From contig JAFQWY010000044.1 in NCBI GenBank assembly GCA_017407225.1, forward strand, positions 25 to 64,024: DNA of 64,000 nucleotides. Reading direction: 5' to 3'. Under the pieces are notes generated by a model. That model had not been told where the DNA came from, made no database searches, and saw nothing but the letters and a program-made list of their open reading frames with translations. The translations under genes and the position numbers were made by a program. This document shows, in pieces, positions 1-11,907 of this stretch. This stretch comes from Clostridia bacterium (GTDB taxonomy: Bacteria; Bacillota; Clostridia; Oscillospirales; CAG-272). The first letter of the stretch is position 1. Every line of letters starts with the position of its first letter.

Positions 1-782
1 ATTTTGTAGAATCTGTAGTCCGGGAGGGCTTTTCTGTAAACGGAGAGGTATTTTTCGTAGGGATTTGCCCACACCACGGCGTTTTTCTTCACGATGTCGC
101 GGATGTCCTTCCCGTTCCATGCGAATTCCCGGCGGATGATGGTGAAGACCGCGCGCTCGAAATCCCCCAGCATGGCGGCGTGCTTCCGGCACTGTTCCTC
201 GTTCCGTCCCATCATGCAGAAGAAGAAAATCCCGATGTTGTTGGGCTGAATGTCAAGCTCGCAGGGGTAGGACTGTTTGAGAAACGTGATCCGGTCGCTG
301 CGGGTGAACTGCTGGAATTTCCAGTTGACGTAGTTCACATCCGCTTCAAAGCCGTCGAAGCTGTCGAAAATCATGGGATCCACTCCCGTGTAGGTCATGT
401 CGTTCACCGTTGTCAGCAGAAATGCCTGCAGCTCCTGACCGCATCCGATGTCGTAGATGTTGGAAATTTCCAGATCGCGGCACAGCCGGAACAGGCAGGA
501 ATAGCGGTACACGGCGTCCCCCATGACTGCATCCCCGCGCACGGCACGCTTGAAGAGGTGCAGATCCGTTTCGTCCCCGCTGATGCCGTCGGGATGGGCG
601 CCCTCCTTGAAATCGTGGAAGGCCGCATATCCGGCATTGATGCAGGATCCCCGGAACAGCTCCCGGAGCTTCAGAAATTCCTCATCGTTCAGTTTGTCCA
701 CCTCGCGTTCGGGGAGACAGCGGTAAATCTCTTCGTTTTCGTGATTTTTCGGTGAGCGGTCGATGCCGGTGTTCTTCTCCAT
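1..782 (-). CDS. Hypothetical protein; the 3' end runs off the left window edge
   Basis: Hand translation from ATG (complement of 780-782) gives MEKNTGIDRSPKNHENEEIYRCLPEREVDKLNDEEF... with no stop down to position 1. GGAGG (complement of 790-794) lies 7 nt upstream. It is absent from the ORF track because there is no in-window stop. Track ORF 180..755(+) is its antisense shadow. Confidence 0.7.
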   Translation of the reverse strand, partial: MEKNTGIDRSPKNHENEEIYRCLPEREVDKLNDEEFLKLRELFRGSCINAGYAAFHDFKEGAHPDGISGDETDLHLFKRAVRGDAVMGDAVYRYSCLFRLCRDLEISNIYDIGCGQELQAFLLTTVNDMTYTGVDPMIFDSFDGFEADVNYVNWKFQQFTRSDRITFLKQSYPCELDIQPNNIGIFFFCMMGRNEEQCRKHAAMLGDFERAVFTIIRREFAWNGKDIRDIVKKNAVVWANPYEKYLSVYRKALPDYRFYK

Positions 783-883
783 GGCAAGTCCTCCTTCGGG
801 CTTTTTGATTTCAGTATACCATGGGACGGGACGGATGTCAATCAACTGATCGGTGAGTCGGGTTCCGCAGCAGATGAGAAAAC

Positions 884-908
884 AAAAAAAGGAAGACGGA
901 TGCCTTCC
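884..908 (-). terminator. Intrinsic terminator downstream of the RAYT gene
   Basis: Hairpin GGAAG-loop-CTTCC (891-908) lies immediately after the stop at 912-914. A 7-nt A run on + (884-890) gives a U run on the minus transcript. Confidence 0.55.
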
Positions 909-911
909 CTG

Positions 912-1694
912 TTACCGATCTGCCGCAGAATTCCTGTGAAGCCAGCGTGCAGGATTTTCATGGATATATTTTTTCCGGATCAGATAGTCTTCCTTGTCCC
1001 GGATGATATGTTCGATATAGGATCGCTGAAAGAGATCACACCCGATTTCCCGATTGCAGAACCGCTTGAAAGCCCGGATTACTTCCGGCAGCTTTTCGTT
1101 GGCACGGCGATTTCCGGAGCTTTCATCATCGTTTTGGCAAATTCCGCTGCCCTTTACGCAGTCGATTCCACCTTCGGTAGGGGACGGCGCCCCCGACGTC
1201 CCGGAACCAATACATACGGTAGGGGACGGCGCCCCCGACGTCCCGGAACAAATACATACGGTAGGGGACGGCGCCCCCGACGTCCCGGAACAATCCCTTC
1301 CCGATGTTCCGGCAGACCCTGTAAGTATTACAATCACATGGATATGATCCGGCATGATTACATATTGATCGATCAATACACCGGTGATTTTTTCACTGGC
1401 AAGCAGATGCTTTTCAATGATTTTTCCCGTTTCAGTCAGTTGTACCAGCGGTTTGCCGTAATGCGGGACGTCGAGGGCGCCGTGATTCGGGACGTCGGGG
1501 GCGCCGTAATGTGGGACGTCGAGGGCGCCGTCCCCTACCGAAGTTAACGCGATTGAGGGGGAGGAGGGGAGTTTGATTTCGGACAACCGGATGGCATGAT
1601 TTTTGATGCGTATGGTAACAAAATATGCGCCGGCGGAGCTGTAGTTGTAATGCTCCAGACGCAGTTTTTTTCGCTCGGGAAAGTCTTGTTTCAT
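912..1694 (-). CDS. REP-associated tyrosine transposase (RAYT, IS200/Y1 HUH family) with internal REP-derived tandem insertions
   Basis: The layout matches E. coli RayT/YafM-type proteins: N-terminal YSSAGAYFVTIRIKN, HUH motif VIMPDHIHVIVIL, and C-terminal FQRSYIEHIIRDKEDYLIRKKYIHENPARW carrying the catalytic Tyr. The 260-aa ORF is longer than my recollection of typical RAYTs because of the two repeat arrays. Confidence 0.85.
   Translation of the reverse strand: MKQDFPERKKLRLEHYNYSSAGAYFVTIRIKNHAIRLSEIKLPSSPSIALTSVGDGALDVPHYGAPDVPNHGALDVPHYGKPLVQLTETGKIIEKHLLASEKITGVLIDQYVIMPDHIHVIVILTGSAGTSGRDCSGTSGAPSPTVCICSGTSGAPSPTVCIGSGTSGAPSPTEGGIDCVKGSGICQNDDESSGNRRANEKLPEVIRAFKRFCNREIGCDLFQRSYIEHIIRDKEDYLIRKKYIHENPARWLHRNSAADR
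1177..1302 (-). repeat. Three tandem 42-bp units, each containing the REP core GTAGGGGACGGCGCCCCCGACGTCCC (+ strand), in frame inside the RAYT ORF
   Basis: REP cores lie at 1177-1202, 1219-1244 and 1261-1286. The period is exactly 42 nt (14 codons). On the coding strand they translate as 3 x SGTSGAPSPT(VCI). Confidence 0.95.
1465..1538 (-). repeat. Three tandem 24-bp units of the reverse-complement REP (GGGACGTCGRGGGCGCCGT..), in frame inside the RAYT ORF
   Basis: Units start at 1465, 1489 and 1513, a period of 24 nt (8 codons). Only the third carries the full ...CCCCTAC end. They translate as VGDGALDVPHYGAPDVPNHGALDVPHYG. Confidence 0.95.
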
Positions 1695-1711
1695 GTGGGG
1701 TACCTCATCAA

Positions 1712-1762
1712 TTGAAAAGGGGCTGTAGCACTAAGGAGAAAAACTCCGAAATGCAACAGCCC
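1712..1762 (-). terminator. Long imperfect hairpin downstream of the cysK-like gene
   Basis: GGGCTGTAGCA (1720-1730) pairs with TGCAACAGCCC (1752-1762) with one mismatch. An inner GGAG/CTCC helix is also present. The hairpin is followed on the minus strand by CTTTTC. Confidence 0.5.
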
Positions 1763-1770
1763 GCCATTGT

Positions 1771-2697
1771 TTACTCAAACAGCGGAGTGGAGAAATACCG
1801 TTCCGCGGTGTCGGGGAGAACGGTGACCACGGTTTTGCCCCTGCCCAGCTTCTTCGCCAGACGGATGGCCGCCGCTACGTTGGTGCCGCTGGAAATACCG
1901 CACATGATGCCTTCCTTCGACGCCAGTTCCTTGGAAATGCGGATGGCTTCCTCATCGCTGATGATGCAGGTGTCGTCGAAGATGTTCAGATTCAGAATTT
2001 CCGGGATCACGCCGTCGCCGATGCCCATCTGAAGGTGGGTGCCGATGGATCCGCCGGAGAGAATCGCCGCGTGTTCCGGTTCCACTGCCCAGATGGTCAT
2101 ATCGGGATTTGCCGCCTTGAGGGTTTCGCCGATGCCGGTGATGGTGCCGCCGGTGCCGATGCCGGAGCAGAAGCCGTGAATGGGCCCGTTTACGTCGTCC
2201 AGGATTTCACGTGCGGTCTGGTCGCGCTGGATGGCGGGATTCGCCGGATTTTCAAACTGCTGGGGCACGAAGACACGGGGATCCTCTTCCTTCATTTTCA
2301 GCGCCAGTGCAAGGCATTCCTCGATGCACAGACCGATGTTGCCGGCGTCGTGCACCAGAATCACCTCCGCGCCGTAGTGCTCAACCAGCTTGCGGCGTTC
2401 TTCGGACACGGAGTCGGGCATGATGATTTTTACCTTGTAGCCGCGGACAGCGCCCACGAGGGACAGACCGATGCCCTGATTGCCGCTGGTGGGCTCCACG
2501 ATGATGGTGTCTTCGTGGATGAGACCCTTTTCCTCGGCATCGCGGATCATGTTGTACGCGGTACGGGTCTTGATGGAGCCGCCCACGTTGAGACCTTCAA
2601 ATTTCACGAGGATCTGTGCGCCGTCCTCGGGTGCGATATGCTGAAGCCGGATGATGGGGGTGTGCCCCATGGCTTCCAGGATGTTGTTGCAGATCAT
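1771..2697 (-). CDS. cysK: Cysteine synthase / PLP-dependent beta-substituting enzyme (CysK/CysM family)
   Basis: 308 aa with N-terminal ILEAMGHTPIIRL, the lysine-containing GGSIKTRTA motif, TSGNQGIGLS, and the GIGTGGTITG glycine loop typical of PALP-fold cysteine synthases. Confidence 0.8.
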   Translation of the reverse strand: MICNNILEAMGHTPIIRLQHIAPEDGAQILVKFEGLNVGGSIKTRTAYNMIRDAEEKGLIHEDTIIVEPTSGNQGIGLSLVGAVRGYKVKIIMPDSVSEERRKLVEHYGAEVILVHDAGNIGLCIEECLALALKMKEEDPRVFVPQQFENPANPAIQRDQTAREILDDVNGPIHGFCSGIGTGGTITGIGETLKAANPDMTIWAVEPEHAAILSGGSIGTHLQMGIGDGVIPEILNLNIFDDTCIISDEEAIRISKELASKEGIMCGISSGTNVAAAIRLAKKLGRGKTVVTVLPDTAERYFSTPLFE

Positions 2698-2757
2698 AGG
2701 ATGGTTACGCTTTCTGTATAATATGGTGATGATTTACATTTTATGCATGAATGATTC

Positions 2758-2786
2758 ATTATAGCACAGATTCCGCAGAAATGCAA
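2758..2786 (-). promoter_or_regulatory. Sigma-A promoter for the cysK-like gene
   Basis: The minus strand reads TTGCAT-17 nt-TATAAT with TGc immediately upstream of the -10 element. It lies about 60 nt upstream of the start at 2697. Confidence 0.6.
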
Positions 2787-2839
2787 GGGCTTGACGGCAT
2801 TGAATGTGATCCGTCCGGATTTATTTCACGCCAAAAAAG

Positions 2840-2854
2840 ACACAGCGGCGTGCC
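2840..2854 (+). repeat. Left copy of the 15-bp perfect direct repeat ACACAGCGGCGTGCC
   Basis: Identical 15-mer at 4359-4373. The flanking bases differ on both sides. The two copies bracket the visibly AT-rich segment. Confidence 0.9.
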
Positions 2855-2972
2855 CAATGTCATTTATTAAACCCAAATAAGTTTAAATAAACCCAAACAT
2901 GAAAGATTCCTCGGTTATTTCATATTCATAATTAAGAGGGGCTTTTTATTTCGTCCAAAATCATGCTAAAAC

Positions 2973-3001
2973 TTGCGAAATTCTTCAATGTGTGGTATAA
3001 T
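2973..3001 (+). promoter_or_regulatory. Sigma-A promoter of the cassette lipoprotein gene
   Basis: TTGCGA (2973-2978), 17 nt, TATAAT (2996-3001), with a TGg extended -10. Confidence 0.6.
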
Positions 3002-3006
3002 ATTTG

Positions 3007-3133
3007 TGCGACACAATTTCATAGTTTTGATTCTATTGAGGGAAAATACCTCGGTAAAAGGTGTTTTCCCTATTTACCCATCCCTAAATGGAATCGAGAT
3101 TGTGTCGCAACAATGTGGGAACTCACTTTTCCG
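3007..3133 (+). promoter_or_regulatory. Structured 5' leader (candidate riboswitch or attenuator aptamer, class not recognised)
   Basis: An 11-bp closing helix pairs TGCGACACAAT (3007-3017) with ATTGTGTCGCA (3099-3109). A 13-bp inner helix pairs 3039-3051 with 3059-3071 and includes one G-U. A small hairpin CCAT..ATGG is at 3078-3091. Confidence 0.45.
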
Positions 3134-3161
3134 GTGCGTTCTTTCGGGAGCGCACTTTTTT
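3134..3161 (+). terminator. Intrinsic terminator inside the leader, 25 nt upstream of the lipoprotein start
   Basis: GTGCGTTC (3134-3141) pairs with GAGCGCAC (3148-3155) and is followed by TTTTTT (3156-3161). No upstream + strand gene exists for it to terminate, so it is likely an attenuator. Confidence 0.6.
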
Positions 3162-3185
3162 ATAAGTATTATGGGGAGAATAACA

Positions 3186-4064
3186 ATGAAACGAATTATT
3201 TTGAGCTTTAGTATTATTTTGCTTCTTCTCATCTGCCTTTCTGGCTGTTTTGGCGAGAATTATTATGAAAAAACAGGGGATTATACACCGCATAATTCTC
3301 CAGTTAATGTTGTTCGTAAAGGTAGTTTGTCTGATTATGAAGTTGAAGAAATAGCGCAAAATATCCTTGTTTCAAGTAACTATTGCAGTACATTTATTGT
3401 AGGTTCTTTGGGAGACTATAAGATAATCGATATATCTTATGATTGGGATGAATATGAGCGGTATATTGTTACTGTTGATTTGAAAGCAAGTAATGGTGAA
3501 GAATATGAAAATCATTCGGTAAAAATGTATTTCAGATATAACTCTACAATTCAAAACTATTGGTGGAATCAATCAATGGTTTTTGAAGACGAATATTCAA
3601 TAGATGATTTCAAAACAGCTATCAATTGGGGTAAAGAAACAACAAGAGAAGCAGATGAAAATTCGTTTGATGAATTTAAAGATAACCTGGAAAAACAAGA
3701 AGCTTATAAAAACTATATATCTAAGTTAGCTGGAACATGGTGGGATACCGATAGTATGAGATGTTTCATGATAATAGAAAAAATTTCTGATACTACATAT
3801 AATGTCGAGGTTAATTGGTCAAGCAGTGCATGGGAAAATACTCAATGGATAATGCAAATCCATTATGATCCCGATAAAAGTGCTTTTTGCTACACAAACG
3901 GCATACAACAGAATGTTGCATATAGTGAAGATGGTAATGAGACGATTGATATAATTTATAATAACGGAAGCGGCAGATTATTTATTGAAAAAGATCATTT
4001 ATTTTGGGTTGATGATATCGAATCTGTACGGAATGGATGTCCATTTGAAAAATCAGAATATTGA
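3186..4064 (+). CDS. Lipoprotein of unknown function
   Basis: An internal start of track ORF 2973..4064 gives MKRIILSFSIILLLLICLSGCFGE, a lipobox L-S-G-C. GGGGAG RBS lies upstream. Codon usage is AT-rich, unlike the neighbours. Confidence 0.8.
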   Translation: MKRIILSFSIILLLLICLSGCFGENYYEKTGDYTPHNSPVNVVRKGSLSDYEVEEIAQNILVSSNYCSTFIVGSLGDYKIIDISYDWDEYERYIVTVDLKASNGEEYENHSVKMYFRYNSTIQNYWWNQSMVFEDEYSIDDFKTAINWGKETTREADENSFDEFKDNLEKQEAYKNYISKLAGTWWDTDSMRCFMIIEKISDTTYNVEVNWSSSAWENTQWIMQIHYDPDKSAFCYTNGIQQNVAYSEDGNETIDIIYNNGSGRLFIEKDHLFWVDDIESVRNGCPFEKSEY

Positions 4065-4271
4065 GGTCTAAAGATATGCAGGGTAAAAATTAAGTGGATT
4101 TATATTTAGAACATCACGAAAATCTTATGAGCCGATGGATAACGAAGCCTTATGGCGCTGACGGAGTTAAAAAGTTTCGCCAAAGACGGGAATAATTCCG
4201 CTAGAATTATGGTTTTTATTTGAACGCAATCAACATAACCTTGCAAAAATAAAGATTTTATGGAAACAAAC

Positions 4272-4312
4272 AAAACGAGAAAACATCGCTGTAGCGGCGG
4301 TTTTCTCGTTTT
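4272..4312. terminator. Bidirectional intrinsic terminator
   Basis: A 13-bp perfect stem pairs AAAACGAGAAAAC (4272-4284) with GTTTTCTCGTTTT (4300-4312). The loop is 15 nt and both sides are U-rich. Confidence 0.7.
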
Positions 4313-4358
4313 CACTTCTTTATGTTTTGTGTTGTTCCTTGATATGAGGTCGATATAT

Positions 4359-4373
4359 ACACAGCGGCGTGCC
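4359..4373 (+). repeat. Right copy of the 15-bp direct repeat ACACAGCGGCGTGCC
   Basis: Identical to 2840-2854. Confidence 0.9.
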
Positions 4374-4389
4374 GTGCCTTTTTTTCGGT

Positions 4390-4806
4390 TCAATGCAGAT
4401 CGCTGTCCCCGTCGTCGTCTTCGCCCATGTATTCCCGGACGCCGACGTAGCGTTCGCTTCGTTCCTCCTCCACTTTGTCGGACAGGAGTGTGCGTACCTC
4501 GCGGGGATTCTTGATCCGTGCGATGTCAATCTCGGGCGTGGATTTGTCGGCGGTGCACAGGTGAATGGTGCCCAGACCGAAGATGCGTTCCTCAAAAGAC
4601 CGTTTCAGCGTGATGTCAAGGATGCGGTAGAGGCGGATTTCCTCTTCGCTGATATTGAAAATACCTTTTTTGATGATCAGGCGCGTATCGGTGAGGGTGT
4701 AGGTGGTAAAGCTCCACGGCAGACCGAAGAGGGTACGTTTCCGTTCGCGCCACAGGGAGGATTCGGACATGGTTTGATTTACTCCTTGGTAATAGTTTTG
4801 ATTCAT
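4390..4806 (-). CDS. Bacterial PH-domain (bPH_2/DUF304-like) protein
   Basis: SLWRERKRTLFGLPWSFTTYTLTDTRLIIKKGIFNISEEEIRLYRILDITLKRS matches the YdbS/YdbT-type PH-domain pattern. An alternative start at 4770 (MSESS) has an AAGGAG 11 nt upstream. Confidence 0.7.
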   Translation of the reverse strand: MNQNYYQGVNQTMSESSLWRERKRTLFGLPWSFTTYTLTDTRLIIKKGIFNISEEEIRLYRILDITLKRSFEERIFGLGTIHLCTADKSTPEIDIARIKNPREVRTLLSDKVEEERSERYVGVREYMGEDDDGDSDLH

Positions 4807-9936: not shown

Positions 9937-11907
9937 ATGAATTCTGCTGCCGAATTGTTTTACGAAATCGGTGAACCCTATGCCGCCGGTTTGTTTGAAG
10001 AGCCGGAAAGGGATTATTTCTGCCGCCACGCCATTGCCAATGCGCGGTACCTGGAGTACGTGAAGCCTGCCCTTTACGACGAGGGAGAACTGCTGTACCC
10101 TGCCAAAACCAAGTACGCGCAGTCCGGGTACGCGGTCACGCCCCAGTTTGCCCACACCTACCAGATCGACTGGGGGAAGCTGGAGGCAAAGAGCAAAGAG
10201 GCCGCCGCTCTCATGCGGGAGTTCCATGCACTGAGCCGCAGCCCCGGAGGATGGACCCACGCGGCGCCCAACTACAAACGGATCATCCGTGAGGGGCTGG
10301 ATTCCTATCGTGAGCGGATTCTGGCACAGCCCGAGGGGGACTTCCGGGACGGTCTGCTGGCTCTCGTGGACGGTATGAAGAGCTACATCACCCGGAGCGC
10401 GGAATATCTGAAGTCCGTTGGTGCACCCGGGGAGCTGATCGCGGCTCTCGAAAAGGTGCCCTTCCGCCCGGCTGAGACCTACTACGAAGGGCTTGTGGCG
10501 TGGAACGTGATCTTCTACTTCGACGGCGCGGACAATCTGGGCTCCCTCGACGACGGGCTTGCCCACCTGTACAGAGGCGAGGACTACACCCACATCATCG
10601 GTCAGCTGTTCGACAACATCGATGCGGTTGGCACATGGTCCTGCACGGTGGGACACGTTTACAACGAAATCACCGAACAGGCGCTCCGTGCCATCAAAAA
10701 CCGCCGCAGACCCATGCTGGAGCTGGTGGTGCGGGAGGATATGCCGGAGAAGCTGTGGAAAATCGCCGTGGAAAATATCCGGTGCGGCTCCTGCAATCCG
10801 TCCTTCTACAACGACCGGGGCATCCACGCCATGCTGAAAGACCGGTTTGCCCACATCCCGGACAGCGAACTGGATCTGTTCTGCGGATGCGGATGTACGG
10901 AAACCAATCTGCAGGGACTGACCCGTGCGGGCGGAACCGACGACAACATTCCGCTGGCGCTGATTTTCGAGCGGTATATGCACGCCCACCTGAGAGAAGC
11001 TAAGACGTTTGAAGAATTCTACGAAGGACTGTGCCGCGAGACGGAAAAGGAAATCGACGTCCAGCTGGATGCCATCGTGGAGCGGTACGAGTACATGGCA
11101 AAATACCTGCCCAACCCCATCCGGACCCTGTTCACCGATGACTGCATCGAAAACGGGAAGGACTTCAACGCGGGCGGCGCACGGTACACGTGGACACAGT
11201 CCTCCGACAGCGGGCTGATCAACACCGTTGACTCCCTTCTTGCCATCCGCGAGCTGATCTTTGAGAAAAAGATGTTCACGGCGGATGAATTCCTCGCAAA
11301 GCTGACGGCGGAGGACGAAGCGTTCTACCTTCTCCTGAAGCAGTGCCCCTGCTTCGGTACGGACAACGAGGAGGCCGATGCCCTCGCCGCCGATTATGCC
11401 GGTCGTGTCTACAGCGTGTACCGGAACAAGCCCCCGAAGAGCTTCATTGACGCCTACATCCTCACGGAGCACCAGTTCCTGCGGTACGAAGGTGAGGGCA
11501 GACGGGTTGGCGCAACTCCCGACGGACGGAAGAAAGGCGAGCCCACCTGCGACTCCATTGCCGCCATCCGGGGAAAAGCCGTGGACGGGCCCACCGCGAT
11601 GCTGAAAAGTGCGGCGAGACTGCCCCAGCATCTGGCGGACGGCATCTCCGTGCTGAATCTGACGCTGGCGAAGAATTTTGTGGGAGAAACCCTGTGCTCC
11701 CTGGTGAAATCCTACTTTGCCATGGGCGGCATTCAGGTGCAGGTGACCTGTACTTCCGTTGAGGAGCTGAAGGATGCCATGGTGAACCCCGACAAGCACC
11801 GGGATCTCATCGTCCGGGTGGGCGGATATTCCGATTACTTCGTGAATCTAACCCCGGCGCTCAGACAGACCGTGCTTGAGAGAAATATCCACGAGCTGGG
11901 CGGCTGA
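9937..11907 (+). CDS. Glycyl-radical enzyme (PFL2 / glycerol-dehydratase-like family), short form of about 656 aa
   Basis: The C-terminal glycyl-radical motif LIVRVGGYSDYF, the GATPDGRKKGEP motif and a mid-protein Cys loop FCGCGCTETN (G-C-x-E) are present. The start at 9937 has an AGGAG RBS; the track ORF opens at 9901. Confidence 0.85.
   Translation: MNSAAELFYEIGEPYAAGLFEEPERDYFCRHAIANARYLEYVKPALYDEGELLYPAKTKYAQSGYAVTPQFAHTYQIDWGKLEAKSKEAAALMREFHALSRSPGGWTHAAPNYKRIIREGLDSYRERILAQPEGDFRDGLLALVDGMKSYITRSAEYLKSVGAPGELIAALEKVPFRPAETYYEGLVAWNVIFYFDGADNLGSLDDGLAHLYRGEDYTHIIGQLFDNIDAVGTWSCTVGHVYNEITEQALRAIKNRRRPMLELVVREDMPEKLWKIAVENIRCGSCNPSFYNDRGIHAMLKDRFAHIPDSELDLFCGCGCTETNLQGLTRAGGTDDNIPLALIFERYMHAHLREAKTFEEFYEGLCRETEKEIDVQLDAIVERYEYMAKYLPNPIRTLFTDDCIENGKDFNAGGARYTWTQSSDSGLINTVDSLLAIRELIFEKKMFTADEFLAKLTAEDEAFYLLLKQCPCFGTDNEEADALAADYAGRVYSVYRNKPPKSFIDAYILTEHQFLRYEGEGRRVGATPDGRKKGEPTCDSIAAIRGKAVDGPTAMLKSAARLPQHLADGISVLNLTLAKNFVGETLCSLVKSYFAMGGIQVQVTCTSVEELKDAMVNPDKHRDLIVRVGGYSDYFVNLTPALRQTVLERNIHELGG

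Follow-up and report, generated by a model that had tools for sequence, protein, structure and literature searches.

The 1504 bp between positions 2855 and 4358 of the window, by which we mean the whole stretch of 64,000 nucleotides that was analysed, is DNA of foreign origin that has entered the terminator hairpin of a bPH_2 (bacterial PH domain) gene at its loop. We consider it probable, though well short of certain, that this DNA was acquired horizontally, that it carries the left end module of a family of cassettes of the mobile insertion cassette (MIC) type, and that it is a one-ended derivative of that family. This reading builds on the foreign composition of the insert, the unique repeat around it, a terminator as its target, an end that it shares with the family, the target duplications of that family, and a contig without mobility genes.

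The insert is bounded by perfect copies of the 15-mer ACACAGCGGCGTGCC, which lie on the plus strand at 2840-2854 and 4359-4373 and are flanked by differing bases, just as an earlier note on this DNA had described. To the left lies a gene for a cysK-type PLP enzyme (1771-2697, minus strand; Pfam PF00291, E = 8e-71), and to the right the bPH_2 gene (4390-4806, minus strand; Pfam PF03703, E = 2.9e-19), the terminator of which is split. The left copy of the repeat spans that terminator hairpin from the 5' arm through the loop to the third nucleotide of the 3' arm; together with the first insert base it still gives, on the minus strand, a terminator-like hairpin of 7 bp followed by a T-run. The right copy runs on into GTGCC plus T7, which is the remainder of the native terminator. 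If the insert and one copy of the repeat are removed in silico, the bPH_2 gene regains a clean intrinsic terminator, which reads AAAAAAA-GGCACGGC-ACGCC-GCTGTGTC-TTTTTT on the minus strand (-20.4 kcal/mol). Immediately behind the bPH_2 stop, an A-tract is followed by an 8-bp stem with a 5-nt loop and by a T-tract. It is this rebuilding that places the insertion in the terminator loop. Reads from an uninterrupted site, if it were empty, would be expected to contain the junction ...CCAAAAAAGACACAGCGGCGTGCCGTGCCTTTTTTTCGG.... The cysK promoter region (2698-2839) lies outside the insert, as had been proposed, and the promoter itself (2758-2786, minus strand; TTGCAT-17-TATAAT) can be made out in the sequence, although a consensus scan did not call it.

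That the segment is AT-rich in GC-rich surroundings had originally been judged by eye, and computation bears this out. The GC content of the insert is 0.332 against 0.527 for the genome; 1.5-kb genome windows have a mean of 0.529 (sd 0.033), which gives z = -5.9, and only 0.014% of such windows have so low a value. In tetranucleotide distance the insert lies beyond every one of 1500 random windows, and GC3 is 0.24 in its lipoprotein gene versus 0.68-0.78 in the cysK, bPH_2, and PHP genes. A 15-bp direct repeat alone is not rare in the window, where there are 36 maximal direct-repeat pairs of at least 15 bp (four of them spaced 0.5-3 kb). The pair discussed here belongs to no repeat family and coincides exactly with both compositional borders, and a search of the entire 3.96-Mb MAG, allowing one mismatch, returned these two copies of the 15-mer and no other. 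An independent assembly (L055, matching window 2471-4527) contains both insert junctions at 100% identity, which rules out that the arrangement is an artefact of the source MAG.

Looking for the empty site in related genomes, as the earlier note had suggested, yielded none. Conspecific contigs with any portion of the insert number five, and over that portion each of them agrees with the window. Exact-protein look-ups with the bPH_2 protein, the lipoprotein, cysK, and PHP led either to insert-covering contigs, all of which match the window there, or to no record; protein clusters held no members other than the window's own, and the junction pattern had no match in JGI metagenome contigs. In other species of the genus the cysK and bPH_2 genes are unlinked and the synteny is absent, so that there is no orthologous site in these relatives.

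The insert begins with the 38-bp terminal inverted repeat CAATGTCATTTATTAAACCCAAATAAGTTTAAATAAAC (2855-2892, plus strand), and ends like it are found at G036:C60, G008:C115/C78/C252/C275, G018:C36, and G032:C253, as well as in 19 stretches of GTDB representative genomes, two of JGI metagenomes, and one of IMG/VR. Within its own MAG it is the sole such end. It matches the family pattern CAATGTCATTT-N-GTTTARATAA (a 38-bp end with two TTTARATAA motifs), deviates from the family consensus at positions 13-18 of the inverted repeat, and aligns with the other family ends over the 38 bp plus a sub-terminal hairpin; identity to the end at G036:C60 is 83% across 62 nt. The sub-terminal end module (2893-2954, plus strand) consists of the GAAAGATTCCTCGG hairpin plus a T-run, a motif that stands at one end of family members and that, in L068, L071, and L079, likewise comes after the inverted repeat. 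This hairpin plus T-run is likely to be an insulating terminator. In a metagenome variant, B, the sequence is the same as far as 2921, the hairpin loop (2922-2942) is different, and beyond 2954 there is no similarity. Its interpretation as the same end with other cargo was withdrawn in view of the contig borders (left contigs stop at 2921-2924, right contigs begin at 2977); a haplotype difference confined to the stretch between end module and promoter fits better.

The family, as assembled here, contains 15 complete elements of 1.4-2.1 kb, low in GC and devoid of a transposase, plus one 161-bp MITE form, in Oscillospiraceae-type gut MAGs. We define its ends as CAATGTCATTTAGATAAG...AAGTTTAGATAAG, with inverted repeats at both ends in the 15 relatives. 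Target duplications are perfect and 9-10 bp long in 10 of the 15, and imperfect (7-9 bp) in four more; the duplicated sequences are mutually unrelated and have no common core site. Rebuilt sites fold at -10 kcal/mol or lower in 12 of 15 cases, usually into a hairpin with an A-run on one side and a T-run on the other. The element at G036:C60 is located in a dispersed REP-like palindrome, and its rebuilt site is 95% identical across the junction to uninterrupted paralogous palindromes. Family cargo consists mostly of regulators (XRE-TPR, with HTH_3 and TPR, AraC, or sigma-70), with GNAT genes besides, and contains no transposase or recombinase domain.

On our preferred reading, the left 100 bp of the insert is the family end module (the 38-bp terminal inverted repeat together with its small hairpin), and the family is probably moved in trans by a candidate IS4-type DDE transposase. 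Its cassettes insert into terminator loops, normally with a 9-10-bp duplication. Here, the 15-bp direct repeat would be the duplicated target, and the left junction has the family geometry, leaving the hairpin after 3 nt of its 3' arm. The right inverted repeat has been lost and the right junction lies 5 nt further out than expected, producing the 15-bp repeat, and we infer a secondary rearrangement at this junction. What occupies the cargo bay would then be a promoter, a structured leader RNA with its terminator, the surface lipoprotein gene, and a two-way terminator.

The right end of the window copy is atypical. Its tail (4313-4358, plus strand) lacks the inverted repeat; local alignment to the family inverted repeat does no better than shuffles, and a second copy is absent from both the window and the MAG. 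Searches for relatives of the 3' region (4065-4358) in 301 genomes of the order gave chance-level matches only. The extra ACACA in the 15-bp repeat is not producible by simple deletion of the right end, and the cargo, an RNA-led lipoprotein, is unlike the regulators in other members. On our reading, the window copy is a decayed derivative of the family, one-ended and hence presumably immobile. Please note that the bPH_2 terminator loop as target, the single transposon end, and a repeat 5-6 bp longer than the 9-10-bp family duplication all go beyond what the earlier note had described.

It is worthwhile comparing the family with known systems. The mobile insertion cassette is defined in PMC6199540, with a size range of 0.7-3 kb; according to the account given there of Chen et al. 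1999 and De Palmenaer et al. 2004, MIC231 of the Bacillus cereus group is moved in trans by the transposase of IS231A. Members of our family resemble MICs in falling within this size range, in being bounded by inverted repeats, in lacking a transposase, and in carrying one passenger gene that varies by copy, and they also have a conserved region adjoining one inverted repeat and a target duplication of about one helical turn. They differ in their hosts, which are uncultured Oscillospiraceae-type gut bacteria, in their unrelated ends, in targeting the loops of terminator hairpins, and in a cargo dominated by transcription regulators. The window copy has a passenger gene and no transposase gene, but with one inverted repeat and a 15-bp repeat it falls outside the definition of a MIC.

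For the IS4 family, Table 1 of PMC2266710 lists the end signatures -AATR--------WTW (IS4) and CA------T (IS4Sa) with duplications of 8-10 and 10-13 bp, and the same source describes long, variable-length duplications for the relatives IS1549 and IS1634. Our family agrees with this in its 9-10-bp duplication and in its end consensus CAATGTCATTTAGATAAG, which fits both the IS4 and the IS4Sa signatures at their mere 6-7 defined positions; the window's own end fits AATR, not WTW. It differs in that no DDE transposase was found together with the family ends. There is no such gene (YREK motif) in or near any family element, and no autonomous element with these ends in GTDB representatives, JGI metagenomes, IMG/VR, the genus, or 400 genomes of the order, where short cassettes only were encountered. 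DDE_Tnp_1 (PF01609) genes do occur in eight host genomes, including G000, G008, and G018, with ends that differ from those of the family. MAGs are usually without assembled IS copies. Palindrome-targeting IS, for example those that enter REP/BIME palindromes, are autonomous and insert at the tip of an extragenic palindrome. The cassettes share this type of insertion point, but the duplication lengths of such IS are other, and the cassettes carry cargo and no transposase.

Inside the insert, the self-contained expression unit that had been proposed is indeed present. The cargo module opens with a promoter (2973-3001, plus strand; TTGCGA-17-TATAAT with an extended -10 TG), a layout that is kept upstream of every relative of the leader RNA. 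The structured leader itself (3006-3162, plus strand) has a fold of -64.4 kcal/mol (z = -5.7 versus shuffles), in which a closing helix (3008-3020/3096-3108) and a hairpin (3040-3050/3060-3070) are followed by a linker (3110-3132) and by a terminator plus U-tract (3133-3156) identified by a terminator scan; alternatively, 3052-3071 can form a long-range helix with 3116-3132. Each of 18 copies has this long-range helix, with cognate pairings at -17.3 versus non-cognate at -11.9 kcal/mol, and 0 of 10000 permutations reach the cognate mean. Compensatory changes affect 11 of the 38 leader pairs (six sequences), and the leader model R1 finds one to four copies in each of 13 of the 53 genomes of the genus. 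Rfam covariance models gave no match at E<=1 on either strand of 2600-4500. The leader is a conserved regulatory element and a candidate new class of riboregulator ahead of accessory envelope genes, and we infer attenuator-type control of the lipoprotein. It resembles transcription attenuators and riboswitch expression platforms in combining a promoter, a multi-helix RNA, a mutually exclusive or pseudoknotted long-range helix, and an intrinsic terminator about 25 nt upstream of the start codon. It differs in lying outside Rfam, in an alternative helix that adjoins the terminator without overlap, with no evident switching logic, and in the heterogeneity of the genes downstream of its family.

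The cargo gene (3186-4064, plus strand) encodes a 292-aa lipoprotein with the lipobox LSGC (Cys21) and two uncharacterised extracytoplasmic domains. It is the one ORF taken as a gene, the other ORFs of at least 50 aa in the insert overlapping either it or the leader, and the segment holds no integrase or transposase, as the earlier note had reported. The N-terminal domain (about 45-172) has a few relatives, at around 50% identity. For the C-terminal domain (about 175-292) there are 855 at E<=1e-3, in proteins anchored by SLH, dockerin, YARHG, or Zn-ribbon domains. The lipoprotein matches no Pfam family, profile searches of Pfam and PDB were also without a match, a word-index homologue search returned one weak match, and a single-sequence AlphaFold2 model (pLDDT 38) was too poor for fold comparison. 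The module closes with a strong two-way terminator (4272-4312), with an inner stem (4285-4301) taken from the scan and an outer stem, AACGAGAAAAC/GTTTTCTCGTT, visible in the sequence.

This module could itself be the unit that spreads, an explanation that we regard as doubtful. Promoter, leader RNA, gene, and terminator would enter by or in terminators through recombination or replication slippage that duplicates variable terminator lengths, and the inverted repeat at 2855 would be a passenger or a relic of some earlier occupant. Terminator-containing direct repeats flank other members with the leader RNA, one perfect and 52 bp long (L043, 1289/1956) and one imperfect and about 60 bp long (L029), and lengths of 15, 52, and 60 bp are easier to explain by a process without a transposase than by a fixed stagger. 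In two independent assemblies the lipoprotein-side contig begins exactly at 2977, and homology to the module in G018 begins at about 2963-2978, so that the module has a left border of its own. Against this, what exactly adjoins the left copy of the 15-bp repeat is the transposon end rather than the RNA module. The gene upstream in L043 is paralogous to the module ORF, so that a tandem duplication may account for the repeat there; the one in L029 resembles a dispersed hairpin element, and about 15 of the 20 RNA-led modules are without a flanking repeat.

A perfect 15-bp direct repeat around foreign DNA is also the classical footprint of site-specific integration, and the earlier note had raised this option. 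A circular cassette with the 15-mer would have recombined with a chromosomal 15-mer acting as att core, possibly in integron-like fashion, by means of a tyrosine or serine recombinase supplied in trans; 8 Phage_integrase and 16 Resolvase-domain genes are indeed present on other contigs of the genome. We nevertheless find this improbable. The 64-kb contig (C169) is without a tyrosine or serine recombinase (PF00589, PF00239), the 15-mer occurs nowhere else in the genome, and both an attC-like R-box and a cassette array are absent. The insert starts with a transposon-type inverted repeat, which splits the terminator hairpin to which the 15-bp repeat belongs, and its relatives are found at unrelated target sequences, which are duplicated over 9-10 bp and have no core in common. 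Insertion of foreign DNA with target duplication is supported, and the att reading is not; among the mechanisms listed in the earlier note, a remnant, a MITE-like insertion, or a cassette moved in trans comes closest, the left end being that of a transposase-less family, and an integron-like insertion is likewise unsupported. Hardly credible at all is an ancestral or long-resident AT-rich gene next to a chance or terminator-derived repeat with no insertion, which would suit the failure to find an empty site and the 36 repeat pairs in the window, but not the composition (GC z = -5.9, GC3 of 0.24 versus about 0.7, and no control with as large a tetranucleotide distance), a repeat that coincides with the compositional borders on both sides and restores a perfect terminator, the mobile-element end at the junction, or the unlinked cysK and bPH_2 genes in other species of the genus. 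A chance repeat, an ancestral gene, and an integron cassette were all rejected.

With the decayed family derivative as our preferred reading, the cassettes show how uncultured gut Clostridia acquire accessory genes one at a time, with no phage, plasmid, or integrase involved. The terminator loop is a landing place where neither neighbouring gene is harmed and where transcriptional insulation comes ready-made. Only tentatively would we go further and propose that gut Oscillospiraceae host transposase-less transposons that home to terminator loops, that their cargo bay takes interchangeable, self-insulated modules, one type of which is led by an undescribed attenuator- or riboswitch-like RNA travelling with accessory surface and small membrane proteins, and that the 15-bp repeat records an in-place swap of such a module. 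On its own, the decayed copy in the window is mainly a well-documented example; given its transposase, the family could become a natural safe-harbour insertion system.

The AT-rich segment at 2855-4358 (the insert) is a real insertion, a decayed member of a family of elements that resembles mobile insertion cassettes (MICs) and homes to terminators. The 15-mer ACACAGCGGCGTGCC occurs at 2840-2854 and again at 4359-4373 with different bases flanking the two copies, as the earlier note had reported; a search of the 3.96-Mb, 375-contig MAG for this 15-mer returned only these two, with no third copy when one mismatch was allowed. The 1504 bp between the copies are single-copy in the MAG and foreign in composition. 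Their GC is 0.332, where the genome as a whole has 0.527 (z = -5.9 relative to the full set of 1.5-kb genome windows, only 0.014% of which are as low), their tetranucleotide distance exceeds that of all 1500 random windows, and GC3 is 0.24 in the lipoprotein gene versus 0.68-0.78 in neighbouring genes, so that a compositional break first judged by eye is borne out by computation. Because the window holds 36 maximal direct-repeat pairs of at least 15 bp, a 15-bp repeat is by itself unremarkable; the ACACAGCGGCGTGCC pair stands out in being unique and in lying at both compositional borders. Both junctions are real, since an independent metagenome contig (L055) matches window 2471-4527 at 100% identity. 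The parts of the expression unit described earlier are likewise all present: a promoter at 2973-3001 (consensus scan and sequence), a structured leader RNA (-64.4 kcal/mol, z = -5.7), a lipoprotein ORF with a lipobox at 3186-4064 (read as an ORF), and the terminators.

Two minus-strand genes flank the insert, a cysK-type PLP enzyme gene (1771-2697) on one side and a bPH_2 gene (4390-4806) on the other. Taking out the insert together with one copy of the repeat rebuilds the empty site, which begins 6 nt past the bPH_2 stop and reads, on that gene's strand, AAAAAAA-GGCACGGC-ACGCC-GCTGTGTC-TTTTTT, an 8-bp stem and 5-nt loop with an A-run on one side and a T-run on the other (-20.4 kcal/mol). Because this removal restores the A-run, stem-loop and T-run, the 15-bp repeat makes up the greater part of a terminator hairpin, the loop region of which received the insertion. 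Partial terminator character survives in both copies, in the left on the minus strand and in the right on the plus strand.

When the whole region was searched against relatives, the first 62 nt of the insert matched contig C60 of genome G036, where a 1.63-kb low-GC element carrying one XRE-TPR gene ends in inverted copies of CAATGTCATTTAGATAAG...AAGTTTAGATAA. A pattern search placed these ends in 5 of the 53 genomes of the genus (G000 among them), 19 stretches of GTDB representative genomes, two JGI metagenome contigs and one IMG/VR contig; 400 genomes sampled from the order's other genera yielded none. The GTDB MAGs are labelled Oscillospiraceae, Candidatus Flemingiibacterium, Clostridia or Eubacteriales, with one Lachnospiraceae contig; where a host animal is named, the source is roe deer or goat gut. 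Complete elements (n=15) measure 1.4-2.1 kb, and a cargo-less MITE form of 161 bp has the same inverted ends (L081 7517-7677; G032:C253). Target duplications are perfect over 9-10 bp in 10 of the 15 and imperfect over 7-9 bp in four more, and 12 of the 15 rebuilt empty sites fold at -10 kcal/mol or below, in most cases into a hairpin flanked by A- and T-runs. The rebuilt G036:C60 site is 95% identical, across the junction, to a dispersed palindrome that stands uninterrupted in other genomes, a paralogous empty site. This target (L079 about 1755-1815) is a REP-like palindrome, GGGGGAGGAACTTTTTTGGAAAAAAGCTCCTCCCCC..., which recurs across the genus in many genomes, with 83-95% identity (e.g., G022:C204:23542-23601). 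Most elements carry HTH_3+TPR regulators, others an AraC-type regulator, sigma-70 fusions or GNAT, and a domain scan of the cargo detected no transposase or recombinase domain in any of them. Upstream of the element in G018:C36 (L070 about 11230-11396), a ~60-bp stretch comprising a tRNA 3' end and terminator is doubled, one duplicate being whole and the other split by the element; the arrangement resembles an older duplication of att type, located behind a tRNA gene.

MICs are defined by two inverted repeats, no transposase, passenger genes and a size of 0.7-3 kb, together with a conserved region beside one end and movement in trans (PMC6199540); the family elements fit this definition in structure and are probably moved in trans. 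Their end consensus also fits the end signatures of both IS4 and IS4Sa, with a ~10-bp duplication (table in PMC2266710); the IS4-related IS1549 and IS1634 make long duplications of variable length (PMC2266710). An autonomous partner with family ends was not found, the DDE_Tnp_1 genes in the host genomes having other ends, and this carries little weight because IS copies rarely assemble in MAGs.

The main rival is that the spreading unit is the RNA-led module, through duplication of terminators. In its favour, two other such modules, each with a small gene, lie between long direct repeats containing a terminator: 52 bp and perfect in L043 (G067:C202; 1289-1340 and 1956-2007), where the gene upstream is paralogous to the ORF of the module, and ~60 bp and imperfect in L029 (G054:C10; about 2915-2975 and 3665-3725). 

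No Rfam family matches the leader at E<=1. A similarity search gave six relatives, which conserve the promoter, a 13-bp closing helix, the linker and the terminator, share the inner-hairpin motif GGUAAAAGGUGUU, and show compensatory changes in 11 of 38 pairs. A covariance model finds the leader in 13 of the 53 genus genomes, at 1-4 copies each, ahead of varied small genes (lipoproteins, small membrane proteins, Zn-ribbon/SHOCT proteins and an ABC transporter); in G049:C20 the module stands in two tandem copies (L027 2806-2954 and 3059-3209). In 18 of 18 good copies the part of the linker that immediately precedes the terminator can also pair, over 13-18 bp, with the 3' strand of the inner hairpin; this long-range helix (3052-3071/3116-3132) covaries across the copies (-17.3 kcal/mol for cognate versus -11.9 for non-cognate pairings; 0 of 10000 permutations reach the cognate mean). 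It would either compete with the hairpin or span the closing helix as a pseudoknot. The arrangement points to a candidate attenuator, one with no evident switching logic, since there is no overlap between the alternative helix and the terminator.

Conspecific contigs covering part of the insert (L051-L055) all match the window there. Another contig, L101, is identical to window 593-2921 except for one SNP, left repeat and left inverted repeat (2855-2892) included; it then diverges in the hairpin loop of the end module (2922-2942), has no similarity past 2954, and continues for 83 nt (L101 1-83) that match nothing. Lipoprotein-side contigs in two samples start exactly at 2977. The simplest reading would be two co-occurring haplotypes that differ only between end module and promoter (2922-2976), the stretch where the end module and the RNA-led module would be joined; homology to G018:C34, the closest leader relative, likewise starts at about 2963-2978. 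In two samples the metagenome assemblies are interrupted at 2921-2924 and at 2977 (L101; L051, L054, L102). L052 (ENA ERZ28654211) departs from the window within cysK at 2634, where it may be a chimera or a rearrangement, and has a 13-bp deletion in the cassette terminator (window 4303-4315).

The cargo lipoprotein has two uncharacterised domains, of which the C-terminal one (~115 aa; residues 170-292; window 3693-4061) has 855 relatives at E<=1e-3, a consensus that includes GxWxD...SQRC...WSSSA...W...F, and no match in Pfam or PDB. Of the full-length relatives scanned, some have SLH, dockerin, YARHG, SH3 or Zn-ribbon domains, which makes the C-terminal domain an extracytoplasmic module; proteins anchored by SLH, dockerin, YARHG or Zn-ribbon contain 1-4 copies of it. 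The single-sequence model of the lipoprotein is unusable (pLDDT 38). Beyond cysK, 1.1 kb from the cassette, lies a RAYT-like gene with in-frame REP arrays (912-1694); it had no Pfam hit, and no connection to the cassette ends was seen.

ALTERNATIVES

Site-specific integration of the att or integron type, which the earlier note had entertained, is disfavoured: the window's contig holds no recombinase, the core 15-mer is unique, relatives share no common core, and a transposon-type end stands at the junction. The remnant or MITE-like option raised alongside it fares better, the left end being that of a transposase-less family and the only end present, hence a decayed member. An ancestral gene beside a chance repeat is contradicted by the foreign composition of the insert and by the exact rebuilding of the terminator on its removal.

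As a decayed family member, the insert keeps the family geometry on its left side, where the junction falls 3 nt inside the hairpin's 3' arm, and a hypothetical 10-bp duplication, GCGGCGTGCC, would centre on the loop, as it does in the relatives. On the other side the junction is displaced outward by 5 nt (…GATATAT|ACACA-GCGGCGTGCC), giving a repeat of 15 bp versus 9-10 bp in the family. Only the left inverted repeat is present, with no second one in the window or the MAG, and the insert's final 100 nt are no closer to the family end than shuffled sequence is. A plain right-end deletion was rejected as the cause of the 15-bp repeat, since it cannot yield the five extra bases; the stagger may have been atypical, or the right junction may have undergone a secondary event. 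The cargo, too, is an RNA-led lipoprotein module and not a regulator. Because solitary ends also stand beside retained genes in G077:C2/C14 and G008:C252, one-ended, immobilised copies seem to be a regular fate of this family.
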